From the NCBI GenBank assembly GCA_000165345.1, contig CM000429.1:96001-160000 (forward strand): a stretch of DNA of 64,000 nt, in the 5' to 3' direction. Below are positions 2,340-15,221 of the stretch, piece after piece. The notes beneath the pieces are model-generated. The model ran no database searches, was not told the DNA's origin, and saw nothing but the letters and a program-made list of their open reading frames with translations. Each line of letters begins with the position of its first letter. Position 1 is the first letter of the stretch. Both the position numbers and the translations under genes were made by a program.

Positions 2340-4154
2340 CTAGGGTCCTTTAAGTTGTTGTATGACAGAGAATATTTCATCCCAATTTTCATCGGAATAA
2401 TTATTGTGATTCAAGGTTGAATAATAGTTTTTAGATCTAGATAGTTTGTTAAGTTTTAAATTGTTAATTAATTTATAATTTTCATTATAATTATGATCAA
2501 AATTTTGATTTGATAAAGAAGTATTATAAGTTTTATTTCTGATAATTTTGTTCTTCAAGTATGAGATTTCCTCTGAAAGTTTCTTATTTTCAAGATCTTT
2601 GAGTTTAAGTTTTTGTTTGGAGGCATCCAGCTGATTCTTTAAAATATTGATTTCGTTTCTAAGTCTTGTAACTGATACACTGCTTACAAAGTCAATATTT
2701 CTTTCATTATTAGTTTTATTAAGAAAATCTTTCTTGTGAACATTTTCTAAAATATAATTGCTTGTAATAGGAATATCTTCATAATAGTTTTGGTTTTGGA
2801 GATTGCTTATTGATTGGATGAAGATATTGGAAATTCTTTCGACATTTAATTTGGTTTTAGTTTTATTTTGAGGATTTGTTTGAGTTTCTGAATCCATTAA
2901 AAAAGTATTTTTTTTATTCCACAAGAGTTCTTTTAGAGGCTGGAAGACTTTATCAATAATAATAATAAATTCAATTAAATTTGGATAGCTTTCCCAAATC
3001 AGTGAGTCTTTGGAATAATTATCAAAAAGATCAGAAAAGTTTGACTCAAGAATAGATTCACTTTCAATATGATATCCAATGAAATTTAATAGATCTTGTA
3101 AAAAGTCATTTAAGCTTTTTTTTTCAAATTCCAGTTTCTGAACTACTTCATTTAGAACGGAATTATTAGTATTAAATAATTCTTGTTGCTCTAAATGATA
3201 TTTTTCATTTTCGGATGCTTTTTCTAAAAGCTGTTTCATTTGATTTCCCATTTCAATTACTGTTTGTTGACTCTTTTTTAAATTCTCTGATTCTTTTGCA
3301 AAAAGACTTTTTTGTTTAACAAGCTCAAGACTGACTGATGAAAACTGCTCATTTCTCAGATCTAATTGTCTTTGAATTTCAATGTTTAAATCTTCAAGTC
3401 TTTGAATATAGTTATTTTTCTCTATTAGTAATTGTTCATAATCTGTACTTTGCATTGTAGTATCTGGTAAAACCTCAGGGAAAAGTTCAATTTTGTGTAC
3501 CAAAGAACTTACAAACTCATTATTAGTTTTACTAAGTAAAATTTGAATTGAATCTAACATTTGTAAATTCAATTCTATATTTGTATTTGTATTTATTCCT
3601 TTCTCCTCAAACTTTACTTCTTCATCTTTAATATTAATTCTTTCTTCTACTTCTCTCAAACTTTCTTTCTCCTCCATAATATCATGTTCTGCAATTTCAT
3701 TAATCTTATTCTTAGACATCTGCAGAATTTGTGATCTTAATTCTGCAATTTCATCCAAATATATTTTTACCTCCTCTTTGTGTACATTTTTAATTATATC
3801 AGTAACTTGTAATAACTCTAGAGTTTTTGATTTTCTTGCCATATTATAATCATCTAATTTGTCAGGTTCACCAATTTCTCTTAATGTTATATCTACATTG
3901 TTCACATTATCCACAGGTGGCTCCTCATATTGGTTTAATTCTTGCTCATCAAACAGATTTGTTCTTCTTAAAATCGAAGATAAGCTATACTGGGGTTTTC
4001 TATTAGAGTGAACAATATGCCCTATTTCTGACCAAATCATTTTACTCTTATTGCTTTCCGTTTCATCTTGGAAAAATCCTTCATTCGAGCTCGGCTCAAA
4101 TTCAGAGTAACTTTCTGAATTCATTCTTTTTTCTAATTCTTTCTCTTCAATCAT
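2340..4154 (-). CDS. coiled-coil protein (604 aa), function unknown
   Basis: ATG at 4152-4154. Long heptad-like E/K/L/Q-rich stretches (IEIQRQLDLRNEQ..., LEQQELFNTNN...). An E2F-like GGCGGGAA box lies upstream at 4343-4350. Confidence 0.55.
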   Translation of the reverse strand: MIEEKELEKRMNSESYSEFEPSSNEGFFQDETESNKSKMIWSEIGHIVHSNRKPQYSLSSILRRTNLFDEQELNQYEEPPVDNVNNVDITLREIGEPDKLDDYNMARKSKTLELLQVTDIIKNVHKEEVKIYLDEIAELRSQILQMSKNKINEIAEHDIMEEKESLREVEERINIKDEEVKFEEKGINTNTNIELNLQMLDSIQILLSKTNNEFVSSLVHKIELFPEVLPDTTMQSTDYEQLLIEKNNYIQRLEDLNIEIQRQLDLRNEQFSSVSLELVKQKSLFAKESENLKKSQQTVIEMGNQMKQLLEKASENEKYHLEQQELFNTNNSVLNEVVQKLEFEKKSLNDFLQDLLNFIGYHIESESILESNFSDLFDNYSKDSLIWESYPNLIEFIIIIDKVFQPLKELLWNKKNTFLMDSETQTNPQNKTKTKLNVERISNIFIQSISNLQNQNYYEDIPITSNYILENVHKKDFLNKTNNERNIDFVSSVSVTRLRNEINILKNQLDASKQKLKLKDLENKKLSEEISYLKNKIIRNKTYNTSLSNQNFDHNYNENYKLINNLKLNKLSRSKNYYSTLNHNNYSDENWDEIFSVIQQLKGP

Positions 4155-5218: not shown

Positions 5219-8017
5219 ATGAGATATTTATTTCTGGCTATTTTTTATTTATTTACCTTATACACTTCACTAATTTATCCAGTTAGTTATGGTTCTAATT
5301 ATTATCAAGCCATTAGTGAAGTTTCTTTGGTAAAACTTAAGACTCTCCCCAAAAATAAGACTGGAGAAAATGGTAGTGGTAAACCAGCTACCCCTAAAGT
5401 AGGATCAAGACCTTCAGCTGTAGGAGGTTCAACTACTTCAGGATCTAGCAGTAAACCTAGGGTTACTATACCAAGACCATTAGGGCATAGCGCCTCTTCA
5501 TCTTCAAGAGTTGTCTCGGGAGCTACGCAAGGGCCTTCAAAAAGAAATAATCAACCTAAGCCAAATGAATCTGGAGCTACAGGAGATCCTTCTGATAAGT
5601 CTGTAGGAACTCCATCTACAGGCTTGTCTACACCAAAAGAGGGGCAATCAGGAGTACAACCTCCATGCGGTGAACCATCTCAAGAGGGAATACCATCTCC
5701 ATGTTTAACATCAAATTCGGCAGCAGGAGGAGTTTCTGAATCCAAGTCATCTACATCTAGCCCAAAGCTTACTACAAAACCAGCACCACTTGGAGTAGCA
5801 CCAAAGCCGTCAGCACCATCTAGGCCAACGAAACCTTCGGGGCCTCTAGCAGGAGTAAGACCACTAGGATCTGGAGTAACATCAAAACCATCTGCACCAT
5901 CTAGACTATCAAAACCACTGGGACCTGGATCAGGAGTAAAACCATTGGGATCTGGAGTAACGCCGAAGCCGTCTGCACCATCTAGACCATCAAAACCACT
6001 GGGACCTGGATCAGGAGTAAAACCATTGGGAACTGGAGTAACGCCGAAGCCATCAGCGCCATCTAGTTCATCAAAACCACTGAAGCCTGGATCAACAGGA
6101 GCATCAAGAGCATCGGCAACAGGAGTAGCACCAAGAGTATCGGCAACAGGGTTAACAAAACCGACATCGTCAGGTTTGTCAAGAGCGTTTTCATCAGGGT
6201 CATCAAAACCATCGACTGGGGGATTATCTAAACAATTGGTAACAGGAACGACAAAATCTTCTGCAGGATTAGGAGCAAGACCGAAATCATCACTACCTAC
6301 TACCAGAGCTTCTCAACCCAAAACCAAACTCGGTACTACAACAACTAGAACTCGTTCTAGGTCTAGGAGCAGATCTAGGAGTAGAGATAGATCTTCAGGT
6401 GGCCATCATCCTCTTGAATCTACAAAACCAGGTTGCAGCGGTGAAACAGGAGATAAAGGAGGTTCAGGTGAGGACCGTTCATCTGGAGGATCATCTGGTG
6501 GTGCATCAGGAGGAGGAGAAGGAGGAAGTGGCGAATCAGGATCCTATGGAGGAAGTGGAAGTGGAGGCGGTGACGATAAAGGAGACAAAGGCAATAACTC
6601 AGGAAGAGGAAGATACGGAATATCTATCGACTCTTCTGGTTCTAGTTCTGATTCTGATTCTGATTCTGATTCTGATTCTGATTCTGATTCGGATTCTAAT
6701 TCTGATGATGAAATTAGAGATGCAGTTTCTTTTGCTGCCATACCTTCCGTCACACTTTTCTGTAGAGAAGTCATTAATTTCGTCACCAACCCCGGTAAAA
6801 CTACCCTATCTTTTGAACAAAATAAAGCCTCTTCACTCGATTATGTTGAAGGGTATTTTTATAAGTGGGAGGCTATCCTGAAAATGTTAAAAAAAAGACT
6901 AGAATCCTTGATTAGGAGGTTTGAGGCGTTGGGTTGTGAAGGTCCAGAAGCTAAAAAAGACCGTAAACTGCAAAAATTATGCCAAAAATTAGAGGAAAAA
7001 ATCAGAGATGTTGAAAGTTCCATCTACTTAGCTAAAAGGAAAATCCACAAACTAAAAAAATGTTTGAAAAAGATTGCAAAAATTGAAGAGGAAGAAGAAG
7101 AAGAAGCGCGTGCACCCAAGAAACATCGTAGAGCTAGGAGGTCACAATCTGATTTGGAAACAGGACATAAAGATTCTCAACAAGAAGCAGGAAGCTCCAG
7201 TGACGAAGATTCATCTCAAAGAGAAAAATACCCTAAAAGACGTTCTAAGAGAGGAAGAAGTGGAGTGGCTGTGAAATCACTCGACGAATCAGCTCTTGGT
7301 GCAGTTGGGGGTCAGCCTTTGGACGGTTCTTCGCTTGAATCCAGAAGTTCAGGCTCCACTTCCAGTCTTGATTCCACAAGCTCCAGTTTATTGGAAAATT
7401 CTGAATCAAGTGTAAGACCTGATCCAGAAAAAGTGCCTGTATATAATGGAAAGGTTATTACTCCTTCTCTTATTTATGAAGAGATAGAATCTTCTCGACG
7501 TCACTGCAAAAGAATCTTATCCTCAATTGGAATTGTAAGCGAAGAAGATTTATCGCAAACTCTAGAACAATTTGGTGTCACAGTATCGGCTTTAAAATCA
7601 TTACTTAGCTCTAACTCAGAAAAGATGTTACAAACTCGAGAGAGATTACTTGAACTTAATCAAAAAACTGGAGAATGTACAAATTCTGGACGTGAAGTAA
7701 AAAGGTGTGAAGTGCGCGCTTTATCTTTGAAATTGAAAAGTGAAATCTACGAGGGTAAGCTGTCTGTTCTAGAAGAATGCCTTTTAAAGATATTAGAAAA
7801 AGTTGTTGAATTGGAACTTGAATATCTATTACCCCAAGTTAAATCAATGGCTTGTAAATTCCATCCTGAGCTCGAACAAACTGTTGAAGAAACTGATCAG
7901 GGAGATGGAAATGATGGCGAAGATGATGATGAAGATGATGATGAAGATGACGATGATGAGGATGGGACCCGATATGATTCTGAATTTTTGAAAGAACTTA
8001 CGGATGATGATTCTTAA
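5219..8017 (+). CDS. secreted mucin-like Ser/Thr/Pro-rich glycoprotein with tandem repeats and an acidic C-terminal tail (932 aa)
   Basis: N-terminal signal peptide MRYLFLAIFYLFTLYTSLIYPVSYG. About 27-aa tandem repeats (KPSAPSRPSKPLGPGSGVKPLGSGVTP) x3, RSRS run, Gly-rich block, (SD)n block, a KEKIRDVESSIYLAKRKIHKLKK coiled segment, and a DDDEDDDEDDDDED tail. Confidence 0.65.
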   Translation: MRYLFLAIFYLFTLYTSLIYPVSYGSNYYQAISEVSLVKLKTLPKNKTGENGSGKPATPKVGSRPSAVGGSTTSGSSSKPRVTIPRPLGHSASSSSRVVSGATQGPSKRNNQPKPNESGATGDPSDKSVGTPSTGLSTPKEGQSGVQPPCGEPSQEGIPSPCLTSNSAAGGVSESKSSTSSPKLTTKPAPLGVAPKPSAPSRPTKPSGPLAGVRPLGSGVTSKPSAPSRLSKPLGPGSGVKPLGSGVTPKPSAPSRPSKPLGPGSGVKPLGTGVTPKPSAPSSSSKPLKPGSTGASRASATGVAPRVSATGLTKPTSSGLSRAFSSGSSKPSTGGLSKQLVTGTTKSSAGLGARPKSSLPTTRASQPKTKLGTTTTRTRSRSRSRSRSRDRSSGGHHPLESTKPGCSGETGDKGGSGEDRSSGGSSGGASGGGEGGSGESGSYGGSGSGGGDDKGDKGNNSGRGRYGISIDSSGSSSDSDSDSDSDSDSDSDSNSDDEIRDAVSFAAIPSVTLFCREVINFVTNPGKTTLSFEQNKASSLDYVEGYFYKWEAILKMLKKRLESLIRRFEALGCEGPEAKKDRKLQKLCQKLEEKIRDVESSIYLAKRKIHKLKKCLKKIAKIEEEEEEEARAPKKHRRARRSQSDLETGHKDSQQEAGSSSDEDSSQREKYPKRRSKRGRSGVAVKSLDESALGAVGGQPLDGSSLESRSSGSTSSLDSTSSSLLENSESSVRPDPEKVPVYNGKVITPSLIYEEIESSRRHCKRILSSIGIVSEEDLSQTLEQFGVTVSALKSLLSSNSEKMLQTRERLLELNQKTGECTNSGREVKRCEVRALSLKLKSEIYEGKLSVLEECLLKILEKVVELELEYLLPQVKSMACKFHPELEQTVEETDQGDGNDGEDDDEDDDEDDDDEDGTRYDSEFLKELTDDDS
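6648..6706 (+). repeat. GATTCT hexamer microsatellite (about 9 units) encoding (SD)n inside the mucin-like CDS
   Basis: gattctgattctgattctgattctgattctgattcggattct. Confidence 0.8.
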
Positions 8018-8808
8018 AGGAAATTGGTATAACTGATTAAGATGGAGTAATTGGGATAACACAATTTGGGATTCGTAATGAAAAAAATTAAAACTTTTTT
8101 CATTATGAATATACAAGATAAAAAAAATCTGACTTTTTAAAGTTAATGTATGGTTAAAGCATAGAAAGTTAGTAGATGCTGAATAAAATGACAAAATTCA
8201 CATTTAACTAAAACTAATCCAATTAAGCCTGAATTGGAAGTTCCAAAGTTATGTGATTATGAATAAGCATATTTATTTTTTTATTTTCAAATATTCATTA
8301 CATGCAACTAATTTTGCACCATAGTTGGAAAATTATGACCATTTGGGCGCCAACAACAGGGCTGCATGTAGTAATAAGAATTCAATTAATATAATAATGG
8401 GTGGTTGAATAGTTCTTGAGAATTTCCGAGATTTTTAATGTTACATTTTACTTCATTTTTGAAGCTGTAGGGTTAGCTCTTAATGTGGCAATAAAATTGA
8501 TTGAAGATAGAAAAGTGACAATATTTCTCGCATGCTCATCCAAATGCATTCAGATTTTTCAATGAATATTCTAAATAATTATTTATGTTCAATCAGTTGG
8601 CGCTGGATTTAAAGTTATAAATTTAAGCAAAAGAAGCTGTAACATTAGTACGCTTATGTATCTTTTGAAGTGTTTATATATTTATATTGTGATTCTTTAT
8701 TTCACAAACTTTCAATTAGAAAATAATTCAGAACAAAATTTTCTTACATAATTGTGATTTAGTTAATTGAAATGGGGAATTTTATTATTATTATTATTGC
8801 TTTCCGCA

Positions 8809-10057
8809 TTAATGAAAATAATCATTAATTTCAATCTTTGATTTCAATGTAATGGCATCACTGACTTGAACTCCAATGGCACCAATGATCTGGATAACAA
8901 CATTCTGAAATTTGTTTGAAATTTTAAAATGTTTCACGAATAATTATTTAGATATGGCAAATATTTCAAAAAAAAAAACTTACAAGTAATGATGTGTAAA
9001 GAACACGATTGATTTTTGTAGATGATTGCTCTGGAGACCAATTGATTAACAAATTATGATTATTTTGCATATTAAATAGATACAATGATGGTACAGTTAA
9101 AACTGAAGTTATATCTTTAAATTTTTGTCTAATGGGTATGATATTAATTGTCTTTGACGTAATAGTCTTAGAAGAAGGGAATAGAAGTTAATGTGTGATA
9201 TTTTTGTTTAAGTTTAAGACTTACTATTTTAACACAAGTTAATTGATTTTCCATAAATAAGCTTATGGTTTCGTGAGAACTGGATGACAATGTCAATGAA
9301 TTAATCTTGAAGATAATATCTTTGTATTGATAAGGAGAGTATCTCGTAGATTGGCATATACTTGACTTGGGATCGTATGAAATGGAGGAATAATTGAATG
9401 CTTTAAATATTTTTGAATCTTTTTCTATATTCTTATGAACCATTATTTTAAAATTCAACTCACTAAGTTTATTGATTTCTGTTTCCTTAACTATATTGTT
9501 TGGAATACAAGAAATCAAACAGAGTATATCTTCGTATACTTGTTTAAATAATTCAAATAGAATGATTTGATTATTATCAATTCTTGTAGGTAAATATTTA
9601 ATTATAAGACTGAAATTTGTATTTTTATTTGTTATGATTTGAAATTTGATGATTAAGTTAAACATTACCTTAAATACTTTGAAAAGTATGCCCCATTAAT
9701 TAATATTATTCTAAAATCATCTTTGTAATCTCTAATTTTATCATCAGATCTCAGAAACTGACAAATATTCTCAAAGAGCTCTCCTGTTGAAACAACTCCA
9801 AAGGAATTTCTTTCTGTTGCCAATATTTGGTCCAATGGTATTTCTATTTTTTGTTCTATTTCACATTTTGGGACTAGTAATTCTTTACCATTTGAATCAC
9901 TTTCTTGAAATTTGCCGCTCAAATCAAATTCATGTTTTTGTATTTTCATGATTAATGCATTCATTTTATTAATTTTCTTAGATTTTACCCCTTCGTTAAA
10001 AAATTCCATCAACTTCTCCTCAAATAGACTGCTACCTACTAATACAAACTCACTCAT
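8809..10057 (-). CDS. four-exon gene, ~350 aa hypothetical protein: join(10057..9669, 9609..9225, 9166..8984, 8904..8809) on the minus strand
   Basis: Track ORFs 9665..10057 and 9168..9665 overlap as G-TAA-TG. Intron 1: donor AAG|GTAATG at 9668, acceptor caaatttcAG at 9610. Intron 2: donor AAAATA|GTAAGT at 9224, acceptor ttcttctaAG at 9167. A third frame then stays open for 61 codons to CTT|GTAAGT (8983), with acceptor aaatttcAG at 8905 and a final exon NVVIQIIGAIGVQVSDAITLKSKIEINDYFH*. Total 1053 nt = 351 codons. Confidence 0.45.
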
Positions 10058-10500
10058 TTTGATACTTTATTGATTAAATTGGCTTCCTAACTTATTTGAG
10101 TTTTTAACATTTTATTTATCAATTTTGTTTTATTATATAATTTTTGAAAACATCATGCCTAATGCTGCATGCATTCTTTTTTTTATGGCAGTTTAGGCGG
10201 GAAGTCAATTAGAGAGGGGAGGAATAAAGTGGAAAAATTAAAAAAAGTAATTATGATTATGGGATATGAAATTAATTAATAGAAAAAGAATGATTGGTAA
10301 ATTATTGGTAGTATTGAATATAATTAGATGTAAGAATTGATTATTTATATATTTTCTACTAAAAAGTAATATGATTACAGAGTAGATTTTGCTTAAGTTT
10401 TAAAAAAAGTACGTGTGCATGTGAATTTTCTCCAATTATATGTGGGGTAGTAATGAATAATAAAACTTATTATAAATCTATTATAATTTAAAAATTATCT

Positions 10501-11305
10501 TTATTTTTTATTAATAACACGATCTTTTGTTTCAGTCAAAGTTGGATAATTATCAGTGAAACACTGAGTATAGCACTTAATCAAGTCATGGTCTTTATTT
10601 AAACTATTTAGAAGATCCTTAGGTTTCTGTTTGTATATAAATTATTTATAAAATAAGGAGAAGAAATTTTAACAAAAAAAAAATTGTCATTTTGTTGCAA
10701 GTAGATATAAAGTTAAGTAAATTTTGCCTTAATAATTATTAGCTTACCTTAAATAGATTTTCGAATTTATTGAAACACAGTTGGTGGCAATTCATCACAT
10801 TTTCGTTAATAATATTTAATTCTTGATTAACTTTATTTTGAAAGGTTTCAAGAGGATCTTGACATTTCTGCATTATAATGGAAAACCAAACAAAGAAAGA
10901 AAATCCAATATAAAAAAAGTATAATCATTTTTATTAAATTTTGCTATTATCATTAGTTTATTAACATACCTTTAGACAATCTTGAATATTTTCTAATGAT
11001 TTTTTTTTGTCTGAATTTTTTAAGTATTTTGAAATACAATTTGAAGAGCATTCAAAAGCTTTTTTCTGGTCATTTAGAGTAGAGAATGTGATCTAATTAA
11101 AAAAAAAGTTTTGCAATTTTATACGTAACAATCAGCATTCAATGGCATGAATTATAGATTAAGTATTAAATCAAGTATTATTAAAACTAGTTTTGGAAAG
11201 GGGAGGAATGAAACATACATCATCAACTTGATCTTCAAATTTTTTTCTGAAATCTCCAATATATTCCTCAATTTTATTTACTAAGTCAATTGTAAAATTT
11301 GACAT
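10501..11305 (-). CDS. FAM136A/DUF842-like protein with four CX3C motifs (151 aa), four exons: join(11305..11219, 11092..10970, 10867..10748, 10626..10501)
   Basis: No track ORF. Exons end in GAT|GTATGT, AAG|GTATGT and AAG|GTAAGC. Acceptors are ttaattAG, ataatgcAG and acaaacAG. Spliced protein MSNFTIDLVNKIEEYIGDFRKKFEDQVDD-ITFSTLNDQKKAFECSSNCISKYLKNSDKKKSLENIQDCLK-KCQDPLETFQNKVNQELNIINENVMNCHQLCFNKFENLFK-KPKDLLNSLNKDHDLIKCYTQCFTDNYPTLTETKDRVINKK. The four CX3C motifs align with human FAM136A (FRCSASCC, QCIERCHVPL, RCTMHC, SCVTKCVDD). 456 nt = 152 codons. Confidence 0.6.
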
Positions 11306-11787
11306 TCTTAAAATTTTCTTTTGTGGCTTATTGTCAAAATTACTTTTTTAGTTACTTGGCCGGGTGAAAATAAAAATTAATGTGGGGGGCTGTTTACAAT
11401 GGGGGAGAGCGCGTTGGAAAAGTTTCAAAAGGTATTAAGCTACAAAGGCAACAAAAAACTATTAGCTTTTTAATAAGCTTATCTTATTTTGGTATTAAAA
11501 AAACTAAAATTTTCATTCTAATTCAATTTATGAGAAGAAACTAAACTCTTAAGTAAAATTTTGAATTTATTCTTCTTTTTCTTTTAATCGTAATAATAAA
11601 TAAAACAAATATTGAAATAATTTCCTTTTATTTCTCTCATCTAATTATTTTATTTATTAAAAGAAATAATTTGTCCACATGAAATTGCATGTAATTTTTT
11701 ATCATCAAAAACATTAGCACACATTCCTATACCGGCATTAATAAAATAAAGAAATTGCATGTGGGGGAAAAAAAATAATCATAAATA

Positions 11788-13128
11788 ATGAATATTTCAT
11801 CATTTAGAATAAAAAGAAGGAAAAAAAGTGAGGATGACGATGATGAGAAAAAAGATAGTTCAAGCTATGAGGAATTACTGGAAGTTATTGCACCAATAAA
11901 CAAATTTAAGAGTAAGCCAGCATTAGGAGTAACTACATTTTCAAGACAAATGTGGTGCGAAAAAAGCTTAGAAATTTGTCTCGAAAATAATATTAAAATT
12001 ACAAGTAAAGCTATTGAAGAAGGTATTAAACACCATGAAGAATTAGAGCTAGAAGATCACCAAGTTCTCAGTGTAATGGTAGAGAATGAATACGAGAAAA
12101 TGGCAATTGAAATTTTAAGTATAGTAAATCTATTGGATGGGTTAATTGAAAGAGGATATATTCGTGAGCTTCCAATAATTGGATTTTACAAAGGAATAAT
12201 GTTAAGGGGAATAATTGATTCATTACAATTAAAACCAAAATTAAATGGAATTGGAGAAACTAATAATGTAAAATATTCATCAAATAACATCAACAAGTTT
12301 ATTATTTTGATATCAGATACAAAAACTAGAAGAAATACAACTCTTCCAAGTAATGTTCAGCAAAAGACTACAGTTCTACAGCTTGGATTGTATAGAAAGA
12401 TATTGGGTGAAATGATTAATTTTGGAAAAATCTGGAAATCTTGCCATCCTAATTTAATTGATTCCAATGCAATTAAAAAATATTTGAATTCTTCTTCAAC
12501 CATAGATTTGTCAAACTGTTGCTCTGGTTGCAGTTTCCTAAATAATATTTTCGAGTTTCATGGATTAGACCCATTAATTTCTTTTTCAATATTTCAAGAA
12601 TTGGAAGATGCAAAAAGAAAGCAATCTTGTAAAGAAAAAAATGATATTTGTGATACAAATCAAGACCAAATTCAAACCGAAACACATTCTGAGACAGAAT
12701 CTGTAGTTGATACTGACGGGAAAAGCGTCCTAAAAGAGTTTGAAAACGCCCTTGAAATTGGTTTTAACATGTTACTTTGCTTCTCAAAACTTCCAGATAT
12801 TCAGTCAGAAATGAAAGTTGAATACGATTGCCAAGGTAAAACTTTCGCTACAAAATGGTATAAGTCTTCAGAACAGACTATTGAGCTTGAACTAGATTAC
12901 TTATTGGGTTGGTGGCTTGGTGCTAGAGAAGCTGAATTTGTTAGAATCTCAGAGGCATGGAAATGTAAGTTTTGTAATGTAATTGAATATTGCCAAGTAT
13001 GTCCTCTTTCAAAAGAAGAAAAAGAGAAATGTATTGAAAAAATACGTCAAGACGAACTAGAGTCATTACTAATTAAAGATTTGGAAGAATCATCTAATGA
13101 GCATATTTTAACATTAAATTGTTCATAA
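11788..13128 (+). CDS. EXO5: Exonuclease V (Exo5/DEM1 family; PD-(D/E)XK nuclease with Cas4-like 4Fe-4S cysteines), 446 aa
   Basis: N-terminal VTTFSRQMWCEKSLEI (the WCE motif of Exo5). C-terminal C-x2-C-x5-C (CKFCNVIEYC) plus the N-terminal Cys gives the one-plus-three cysteine FeS pattern of Exo5/Cas4/AddB nucleases. Basic KRRKK N-terminal tail. Confidence 0.65.
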   Translation: MNISSFRIKRRKKSEDDDDEKKDSSSYEELLEVIAPINKFKSKPALGVTTFSRQMWCEKSLEICLENNIKITSKAIEEGIKHHEELELEDHQVLSVMVENEYEKMAIEILSIVNLLDGLIERGYIRELPIIGFYKGIMLRGIIDSLQLKPKLNGIGETNNVKYSSNNINKFIILISDTKTRRNTTLPSNVQQKTTVLQLGLYRKILGEMINFGKIWKSCHPNLIDSNAIKKYLNSSSTIDLSNCCSGCSFLNNIFEFHGLDPLISFSIFQELEDAKRKQSCKEKNDICDTNQDQIQTETHSETESVVDTDGKSVLKEFENALEIGFNMLLCFSKLPDIQSEMKVEYDCQGKTFATKWYKSSEQTIELELDYLLGWWLGAREAEFVRISEAWKCKFCNVIEYCQVCPLSKEEKEKCIEKIRQDELESLLIKDLEESSNEHILTLNCS

Positions 13129-13436
13129 CTATTTTAAATTTTATTATATGGTCATTAATCAAAAATATGAGATTCAAGTTAAAATATTTTTTTCATATTT
13201 TCTTATATTCATTTTAAACTTAAATAAAGAAATTACTTTTTTTAACAATTCAAATTTAATTTATTGTTAAATACGTGTGAAGCTTAAATAGTACCATAAT
13301 AACTATTAACAAATAATATTTACCTAACACACACTATAAAAGACCCCAAAAAAAAAAAAATTAATGAACAAATAAATGAAATTACTCATCTAAATAATTT
13401 TTAAAAAATAATAAAATTTCATAATTTTGATATATA

Positions 13437-15221
13437 ATGCCATCAAGCTCAGCTTTATCCACTAAATGCTGTAAAATTATTGATGAATATGAAACTAAGC
13501 TAAACAAAGAGCTTGGAAATGCATGCAGGGAGGGGGCAGTAAGCGCGCCAGAGTTAAAAAAGTACAATAACTTAAGAAAAGGAAGTCTTCTGGGAACAAA
13601 TTTGGTAAATAGTGTTATAGCATCTGAAAGTCCATTTAGAAGAGATTCGAGCTTATTGTGGTTATCATATGATCCATCTAATGAAAGACAAAGTGAGATA
13701 AATAAGATGATTAAAAATGAAGATGGAACAGCAGTTCCAGATATGTGCGATAAATACGTGTTGGTAGATACTTATACAAGTATTTTAGCTTCAAATAGAC
13801 AGCAGGCTTGCTATATTTCACTATTATCTCCTCTTCCTCAGGATACTGTAGTTGGTATAAAATTTGGAGATCACTTGTGTCAAGGAAGAATTAACGATAC
13901 AATGATTGAATATATATCTCCATCTCTTCCTGTTGGACGTCAATATGCAAGACTATATTTAAATAGTGTGAAGATGGGAGTAAAGTTTGGGAATGGGAAT
14001 ACAATGTCAGAAGCAAGAAGTTATTTACCTTTTGATGTAATAGTTCAAGAACCAAAATCGCGAAGATTGAATATTAAAAAGCATAAGACCTCAATACCTG
14101 TTGGAGTTATGGGGCCAGCCCCATTACCAGAAGTTGATATAGAAGATGAAGTTGAGGAGCTATTAATAATGCATAAGCCAAGAGGAAATGCTTCTATAAT
14201 TTCAAGAAGGCATGCTTTAGATAAATATTTCAAAGGCACGCATTCAAAAGTAGTTAATGCTCCAAGACGTGAAACTGGTGACTTAAATAACTTAGACCCA
14301 TCATTCAAGGCTGCAGTTAATAGAGATTTTTTGAGAAGACTCTCAAATATTACTTTAGAACCAGATTGTAGAAGAACTATTAATTTATTAAATGAATTTA
14401 TATCTAAGTTAGACCCAGGTGCAACAAATAATTTAATACCTTTTAATGTTAAATTAGAGTATTGGAACAGAGTTTTATCCGATGGATGCCAAGAGATTAT
14501 TGATAATTATCATAGTTATATTACACAAGAATCATCCAATGAGAAATCTGTTTATATATTTACTAAAACTTCTCCTGATTCACTTGAACCATACAATGTA
14601 TTTATGTTTTCTTGTATTATGGATGAGGAAAATAACAATTGTGTACCATTATTGAGAAGATTCACATGTAGCCCAGAAAATTGTGGAGATGTAAGGCTTT
14701 GGATATGTATTGGAGATTGCTATCTTGCAAAGAACGAAGTTGCAAATAATTATCGAAAGATTGATTTGCCTTGCCCAATTCCTCCAATAATGAAGTCAAA
14801 AAAATCTGCTCATATTTGGAGTAGAGCAAAAAATAAGTCTAATACAAACTCAACATTTTCATCAAGGAAGTTTGGTATTGGTAATTTTGTGTCAACACGA
14901 GGAGTTGGAGGAGGGTTACTAGGAGCTGCTGGTGTTGGTGCAGGCGGTATCGGAGCAGGAATTGGTGCTGATGAAGATTTTAATGCTGAAAACGAAAACT
15001 CTTCTGAAAAAGAAAGGTGCATTCAAATTTCGAATGATGTTTTTTTATTTTTTGAGATGTGGCCTTCAAAACTTCTTCCAAATGCTGGTAATACTACAGA
15101 GTCATATTCATTTATCTTATGTATTAAAAATCATCAATATCACTCAATAACTGGTATTTCAAAGCCAGTACTTAACTTTATTCTTCAAAAATGGCTCACA
15201 AAAGTCCCCATTAACTCTTGA
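13437..15221 (+). CDS. hypothetical protein (594 aa) with a Gly-rich segment near the C-terminus
   Basis: ATG at 13437. Continuous 594-codon ORF. No recognisable domain. GVGGGLLGAAGVGAGGIGAGIGAD glycine tract. Confidence 0.5.
   Translation: MPSSSALSTKCCKIIDEYETKLNKELGNACREGAVSAPELKKYNNLRKGSLLGTNLVNSVIASESPFRRDSSLLWLSYDPSNERQSEINKMIKNEDGTAVPDMCDKYVLVDTYTSILASNRQQACYISLLSPLPQDTVVGIKFGDHLCQGRINDTMIEYISPSLPVGRQYARLYLNSVKMGVKFGNGNTMSEARSYLPFDVIVQEPKSRRLNIKKHKTSIPVGVMGPAPLPEVDIEDEVEELLIMHKPRGNASIISRRHALDKYFKGTHSKVVNAPRRETGDLNNLDPSFKAAVNRDFLRRLSNITLEPDCRRTINLLNEFISKLDPGATNNLIPFNVKLEYWNRVLSDGCQEIIDNYHSYITQESSNEKSVYIFTKTSPDSLEPYNVFMFSCIMDEENNNCVPLLRRFTCSPENCGDVRLWICIGDCYLAKNEVANNYRKIDLPCPIPPIMKSKKSAHIWSRAKNKSNTNSTFSSRKFGIGNFVSTRGVGGGLLGAAGVGAGGIGAGIGADEDFNAENENSSEKERCIQISNDVFLFFEMWPSKLLPNAGNTTESYSFILCIKNHQYHSITGISKPVLNFILQKWLTKVPINS

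Follow-up and report, generated by a model that had tools for sequence, protein, structure and literature searches.

Introduction

The closest described counterpart of the gene reported here is human FAM136A (Q96C01; DUF842, InterPro IPR008560), a soluble protein of the mitochondrial intermembrane space that carries no presequence, is a substrate of MIA40 and forms a non-covalent dimer (PMC12557607). Eight of its nine cysteines lie within CX3C motifs, and oxidation by MIA40 yields four disulfides in two twin-CX3C motifs (PMC12557607). According to an unreviewed 2026 preprint, FAM136A uses an acid-lined hydrophobic groove to bind VDACs in unfolded form and some small proteins of the inner membrane, and thereby keeps these clients soluble and insertion-competent (10.64898/2026.08.03.742567). 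Human FAM136A has VDAC1-3 and small respiratory-chain subunits as its main clients. Recognition of FAM136A as an intermembrane-space chaperone dates from 2025-2026, and recent papers on the protein give its distribution as metazoa and plants.

In the apicomplexan Toxoplasma gondii, the orthologue TGME49_319730 is listed as mitochondrial, including by ToxoDB (PMC12292971, PMC12607534). Its likeness to both FAM136A and Tim10 has been noted, and knockout parasites are viable (PMC8509533, PMC12292971, PMC12607534), so the parasite may be able to do without a FAM136A-type role or to cover it by other means. Cryptosporidium parvum, which harbors a mitosome, is reported to possess Tom40, Sam50 and Tim17/22/23 (PMC5747110, PMC3044749) and only one small Tim, a combination that offers plausible clients alongside a thin chaperone repertoire. 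In inventories of protein import into the Cryptosporidium mitosome, no intermembrane-space chaperone is listed other than this single small Tim. Mia40 was not found in T. gondii (PMC9490983), and a 2011 BLAST survey showed Erv1 to be absent from C. parvum (PMC3044749 Table 8). The human-type machinery for oxidizing FAM136A thus seems to be missing in Cryptosporidium. To our knowledge, the C. parvum mitosome also lacks complexes III and IV.

Here we describe a four-exon gene in a 64-kb stretch of C. parvum DNA (64,000 nucleotides of contig CM000429.1, assembly GCA_000165345.1; hereafter the window). The explanation that we prefer for the whole of the evidence is that this gene is the C. parvum orthologue of FAM136A and that its product serves as a chaperone in the mitosomal intermembrane space, to which we assign a probability of roughly 60%.

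Results

A spliced gene in an apparently empty gap

A six-frame scan of positions 10058-11787 revealed no ORF of at least 60 aa, and because the longest one reaches 54 aa the gap looks empty in a six-frame track. Reading the minus strand across three introns gives an uninterrupted frame for a small protein with four CX3C motifs (Table 1). Exon coordinates, intron lengths, donors, acceptors, the phase of the junctions and the lengths of coding sequence and protein were all reproduced exactly as given in the original prediction, and its exon 1 peptide and four motifs (CSSNC, CLKKC, CHQLC and CYTQC) were all recovered in the spliced product. One detail needs correction: the motifs begin at residues 44, 68, 97 and 128, with gaps of 19, 24 and 26 residues between them, rather than at the uniform spacing of about 22 residues proposed before. 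The second motif is present solely in the spliced product (CLK from one exon and KC from the next), so the splice model finds support within the sequence itself. A gene this short with three introns is unusual for the intron-poor Cryptosporidium genome. A scan of positions 8000-14000 against Rfam found no RNA family.

The gene had been presented as one without an entry in the ORF track, which holds for a naive six-frame track but not for GenBank, where the identical 805-bp, 151-aa model is already deposited, with DUF842 precomputed. Its entries cover seven species or genotypes of the genus, namely C. parvum (QOY43581.1, WRK30439.1), C. hominis, C. tyzzeri, C. meleagridis, chipmunk genotype I, C. 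ubiquitum and C. canis. The annotated gene of two C. parvum assemblies covers exactly the same 805 bp and adjoins Exo5, and the deposited models (CPATCC_0038910 and cpbgf_100493) are identical in structure. The names under which these proteins are deposited are "uncharacterized" or "C2C2 zinc finger" protein. We regard it as nearly certain that the four exons form a genuine, protein-coding, spliced C. parvum member of the FAM136A/DUF842 family.

Table 1. Positions in the window of the FAM136A-like gene, its parts and the features beside it
Feature	Position	Strand	Description
Coding sequence	join 11305-11219, 11092-10970, 10867-10748, 10626-10501	-	456-nt open frame, 151 aa; every junction phase 0
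Exon 1	11219..11305	-	87 nt, residues 1-29, ATG 11305-11303; acidic N-terminus
Intron 1	11093..11218	-	126 nt, GTATGT...TTAG, phase 0
Exon 2	10970..11092	-	123 nt, residues 30-70; CSSNC (CX3C-1) 11050-11036; CLK of CX3C-2 10978-10970
Intron 2	10868..10969	-	102 nt, GTATGT...GCAG, phase 0; splits second CX3C motif
Exon 3	10748..10867	-	120 nt, residues 71-110; KC of CX3C-2 10867-10862; CHQLC (CX3C-3) 10789-10775
Intron 3	10627..10747	-	121 nt, GTAAGC...ACAG, phase 0
Exon 4	10501..10626	-	126 nt, residues 111-151 and TAA 10503-10501; CYTQC (CX3C-4) 10575-10561
12-mer ACATGCAATTTC, two copies	11681..11692, 11751..11762	-	70 bp apart
Exo5 homologue	11788..13128	+	446 aa; Pfam Exo5 E=6e-54
Neighbouring gene	8966..10057	-	324 aa in the C. 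parvum annotation

Family membership and predicted fold

The spliced protein matched profile positions 5-128 of 131 in the Pfam family DUF842 (PF05811), scoring 63.1 bits where the cutoff is 25.1 (E=2.7e-17), which bears out the FAM136A/DUF842 identity that the original prediction had based on motif order and spacing and had offered for an HMM check. All other Pfam matches stayed under the cutoffs of their own families (best E=0.0087). With the same DUF842 model, orthologues scored 60-90 bits. The sequence that we take to be human FAM136A scored 150.7 bits, which backs its identity together with the published nine-cysteine description, and BLASTP of the C. parvum protein against it gave 26% identity over 107 columns (E=2e-9).

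An exhaustive search with a profile built from the database orthologues returned 27 proteins at E≤0.001, and the nearest relatives outside Cryptosporidium were apicomplexan and chromerid (Siedleckia, Eimeria, Chromera, Cardiosporidium, Digyalum and Selenidium). Among the matches was also a fly-labelled record, which may or may not be contamination. All eight cysteines were invariant or nearly so in an alignment of 21 sequences, with C44/48, C68/72, C97/101 and C128/132 in register with the motifs of human FAM136A and a gap of 24 residues between motifs 2 and 3 in every aligned member retaining both. Cryptosporidium differs from the other aligned members by an insert of six residues in the first hairpin loop.

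Exon 1 read through into intron 1 appears in public collections as 'proteins' of 44 aa (window 11171-11305) and 33 aa (positions 3001-3102 of an unannotated Cryptosporidium-like contig). These fragments come from prokaryote-style gene callers and can pass as independent homologues in searches.

The AlphaFold2 model of the protein was confident and all-helical (pLDDT 86.1, pTM 0.72), with the main helices predicted at residues 3-33, 35-53, 58-104, 123-134 and 137-149. In this model, C44/C48 fall in helix 35-53, C68/C72 and C97/C101 at opposite ends of helix 58-104 and C128/C132 in helix 123-134, a predicted layout that fits two disulfide-stapled hairpins with the CX3C pairs on adjacent helices. 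Fold searches of the PDB returned generic helical bundles alone, and a sequence search of solved structures found no relative (best E=0.0097, to a coiled-coil spike construct). Residues 1-30 include eight acidic and four basic residues and, judged from this composition, the N-terminus does not appear presequence-like; the whole protein has a net charge of 0 and a pI of 6.7.

Conservation and selection within Cryptosporidium

Across 6805 bp around the gene, the window was identical to C. parvum IOWA-ATCC at 6804/6805 positions (99.985%), and one base differed between the window and two C. parvum assemblies. The original prediction's guess of a Cryptosporidium-like parasite is thus borne out. 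An alignment of the window with the C. ubiquitum and C. canis loci revealed exon identities of 80-92% (exon 1, 92%) and 69-74%, respectively, with zero indels, compared with intron identities of 53-59% (intron 1, 54%) and 31-43%, every indel being intronic. All six GT/AG splice sites occupied matching alignment columns in the three sequences. The unannotated Cryptosporidium-like contig, which derives from a public sequencing run, had the same structure, with introns of 101, 92 and 131 nt, and Exo5 neighbours the FAM136A-like gene there as well. Exons 1-3 were exactly 87, 123 and 120 nt long and without stops in 4/4 species (C. parvum, C. ubiquitum, C. canis and the unannotated contig), while intron 1 measured 117, 106 and 101 nt in the three species other than C. 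parvum. Conservation in other Cryptosporidium assemblies, which the original prediction had named as a point to check, was therefore found in C. ubiquitum, C. canis and the unannotated contig.

Substitutions were piled up at third codon positions (13/9/50 and 34/17/81 at positions 1/2/3). The Nei-Gojobori dN/dS was 0.06 between C. parvum and C. ubiquitum, and pN/pS ranged from 0.11 to 0.20 for more distant pairs, in which synonymous sites are saturated. The FAM136A-like gene is under strong purifying selection across Cryptosporidium.

Two further observations concern variation at the locus. The sole difference between the window and IOWA-ATCC lies in codon 147 (10518-10516, minus strand, exon 4), which reads GTT (Val) in the window and CTT (Leu) in IOWA-ATCC. 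Leucine is invariant at this position in three deposited orthologues (C. parvum, C. ubiquitum and C. canis) and on the unannotated contig, so Val147 would be either a polymorphism derived in this isolate or an error of the assembly; the exact 151-aa sequence of the window was absent from the protein collection searched. At the intron 3 acceptor, C. canis and the unannotated contig carry a tandem TAGAAG, where splicing 3 nt downstream would remove a lysine (KK to K at residues 110/111). No tandem site is present in C. parvum, which has ACAG followed by AAA.

Comparison with described systems

Like human FAM136A, the C. parvum protein (151 versus 138 aa) belongs to DUF842, shows no apparent presequence and is predicted to form a helical bundle; in both proteins, four CX3C motifs occupy matching columns and make up two twin-CX3C units. 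Unlike human FAM136A, to which it is only 26% identical, it has the Cryptosporidium insert in the first hairpin loop. The cellular setting differs too, in that Cryptosporidium seems to have no Mia40 and, according to the 2011 survey, no Erv1, and its mitosome is without most of the respiratory-chain clients.

The apicomplexan and chromerid relatives (Toxoplasma and Eimeria, Chromera and others) share both family and lineage with the C. parvum protein, and the one from Toxoplasma is listed as mitochondrial, but theirs are respiring mitochondria and identity is 24-30%. In the Eimeria flavescens orthologue (contig positions 1501-2254), the only intron, 337 nt long and in phase 0, follows codon 85 and interrupts CX3C-3. 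No intron position is common to the Eimeria flavescens and Cryptosporidium orthologues, so intron conservation outside Cryptosporidium offers no support for the gene model.

Small Tims (Tim9/Tim10, CpTimS) resemble the C. parvum protein in their twin-CX3C helix-loop-helix hairpin, in a profile that weakly matches its second hairpin in register and, as we propose here, in the logic of a soluble intermembrane-space chaperone. Unlike it, they belong to another Pfam family and have one hairpin per chain instead of two. Human FAM136A is a dimer, whereas small Tims form hexamers.

Proposed function and competing explanations

By analogy with its described orthologues, we lean slightly towards the C. 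parvum protein being a chaperone in the mitosome intermembrane space. As suggested by these orthologues, it would enter that compartment through Tom40 without a presequence, and disulfides would lock its two helical hairpins, joining C44/C48 with C68/C72 and C97/C101 with C128/C132. Once folded, it would serve as a soluble chaperone and, beside the single small Tim, shield the hydrophobic segments of membrane-protein precursors in transit; the likely clients would be polytopic proteins of the inner membrane and two beta-barrels, Tom40 and Sam50.

Given the missing Mia40/Erv1 relay, the main competing explanation is that the protein has moved to another compartment, or functions while reduced or bound to zinc. 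It would then be a true DUF842/FAM136A protein residing outside the mitosome intermembrane space, in the cytosol or elsewhere, with its CX3C cysteines coordinating zinc and with a job other than that of a chaperone. We consider this unlikely, although it is by some way the most serious of the alternatives. The absence of Erv1 from C. parvum in the 2011 survey, the reported absence of Mia40 from apicomplexans and the apparent lack of a presequence on the protein would all suit such a relocation. Zinc binding by small Tims in the cytosol, ahead of their import, can be counted on the same side. The names given to the family in databases include 'YOU2 family C2C2 zinc finger', but no zinc-finger family is among the Pfam matches of the 151-aa protein, and authors who worked on T. 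gondii TGME49_319730 found no zinc-finger motif in it (among PMC8509533, PMC12292971 and PMC12607534). Moreover, ToxoDB lists TGME49_319730 as mitochondrial, and the single Cryptosporidium small Tim, which likewise is a twin-CX3C protein, is accepted as a resident of the intermembrane space. The retention of eight cysteines and of the invariant 24-residue spacing is as predicted by a disulfide-locked hairpin fold.

It is very improbable that the protein is instead a divergent small Tim of the Tim9/Tim10 type, which would supply the single Cryptosporidium small Tim with its missing partner, and not an orthologue of FAM136A. The C. hominis copy bears the UniRef name 'Tim10-like domain-containing protein', and publications remark on Tim10 similarity for both the human and the T. 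gondii proteins, but there was no zf-Tim10_DDP match at E≤10, whereas DUF842 was matched at 63 bits over the full length. When the protein was compared using hhalign with four sequences that we take to be those of small Tims, its second twin-CX3C motif fell in register with that of Tim9/10, though at a probability of 17% over 50 columns. Size and architecture also speak against a small Tim (151 aa with two twin-CX3C motifs, compared with roughly 90 aa with one), and the Cryptosporidium small Tim is reported to assemble with itself only. On its sequence, the C. parvum protein is best classed as a DUF842 member with a distant Tim10-like hairpin and not as a small Tim.

Finally, a chance string of short ORFs or a decaying pseudogene, as might be suspected in AT-rich sequence with common GT/AG dinucleotides and short exons, can be dismissed in view of the Pfam match (E=2.7e-17), exons of 87, 123 and 120 nt in four species with no indels or stops, a dN/dS of 0.06 and a CX3C motif rebuilt across intron 2.

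Neighbouring genes and the shared intergenic region

On one side, the FAM136A-like gene is flanked by the Exo5 homologue (Table 1), an arrangement that is kept in C. ubiquitum and on the unannotated Cryptosporidium-like contig. Yeast Exo5 maintains the mitochondrial genome. We know of no organellar genome in Cryptosporidium, and the Exo5 copy is therefore presumed to work in the nucleus.

Exactly two copies of the 12-mer ACATGCAATTTC are present in the 64-kb window, both within the 482-bp intergenic region between the divergently transcribed FAM136A-like and Exo5 genes. Its expected count in the window is 0.01, and two copies arose in 0/100 shuffles. The 10-mer core of ACATGCAATTTC is present in one copy in the same intergenic region of the unannotated contig, and no exact match to it was found in the C. 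ubiquitum locus. The pair may be a promoter element shared by the two genes.

On the other side, the downstream neighbour that the original prediction had placed at 8809-10057 is shorter in the C. parvum annotation (Table 1). ORFs at 9665-10057 and 9168-9665 abut in different frames, so this gene must also be spliced. Its annotated length varies by species (324, 291 and 259 aa), its two ORF pieces had no Pfam match and its models look unsettled.

Discussion

The gene model described here is not new, and its functional reading is a modest, unpublished interpretive point: among the papers searched, none names FAM136A together with Cryptosporidium or mentions any of the Cryptosporidium locus tags searched. 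We suspect that the mitosome import inventories drew on early annotations in which the three-intron FAM136A-like gene was lacking. The locus is also a clean case of a short multi-intron gene that is overlooked by ORF-based scans in an intron-poor genome.

The retention of FAM136A, under strong purifying selection and with its eight cysteines intact, in a parasite whose mitochondrion ranks among the most reduced known argues against the idea that the protein serves only expanded proteomes. More tentatively, and with somewhat less than even confidence, a second twin-CX3C chaperone of the FAM136A type, kept in a mitosome that is reported to have one small Tim and neither Mia40 nor Erv1, could be part of a minimal core of intermembrane-space protein biogenesis. 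The protein offers a concrete second substrate for studying oxidative folding where Mia40, and apparently Erv1 too, are missing. If the proposal is true, FAM136A would serve Tom40, Sam50 and carriers and would be no mere add-on for large mitochondrial proteomes, and Cryptosporidium, independently of the canonical relay, would either form disulfides by some other route or use the protein in its reduced or zinc-bound form.
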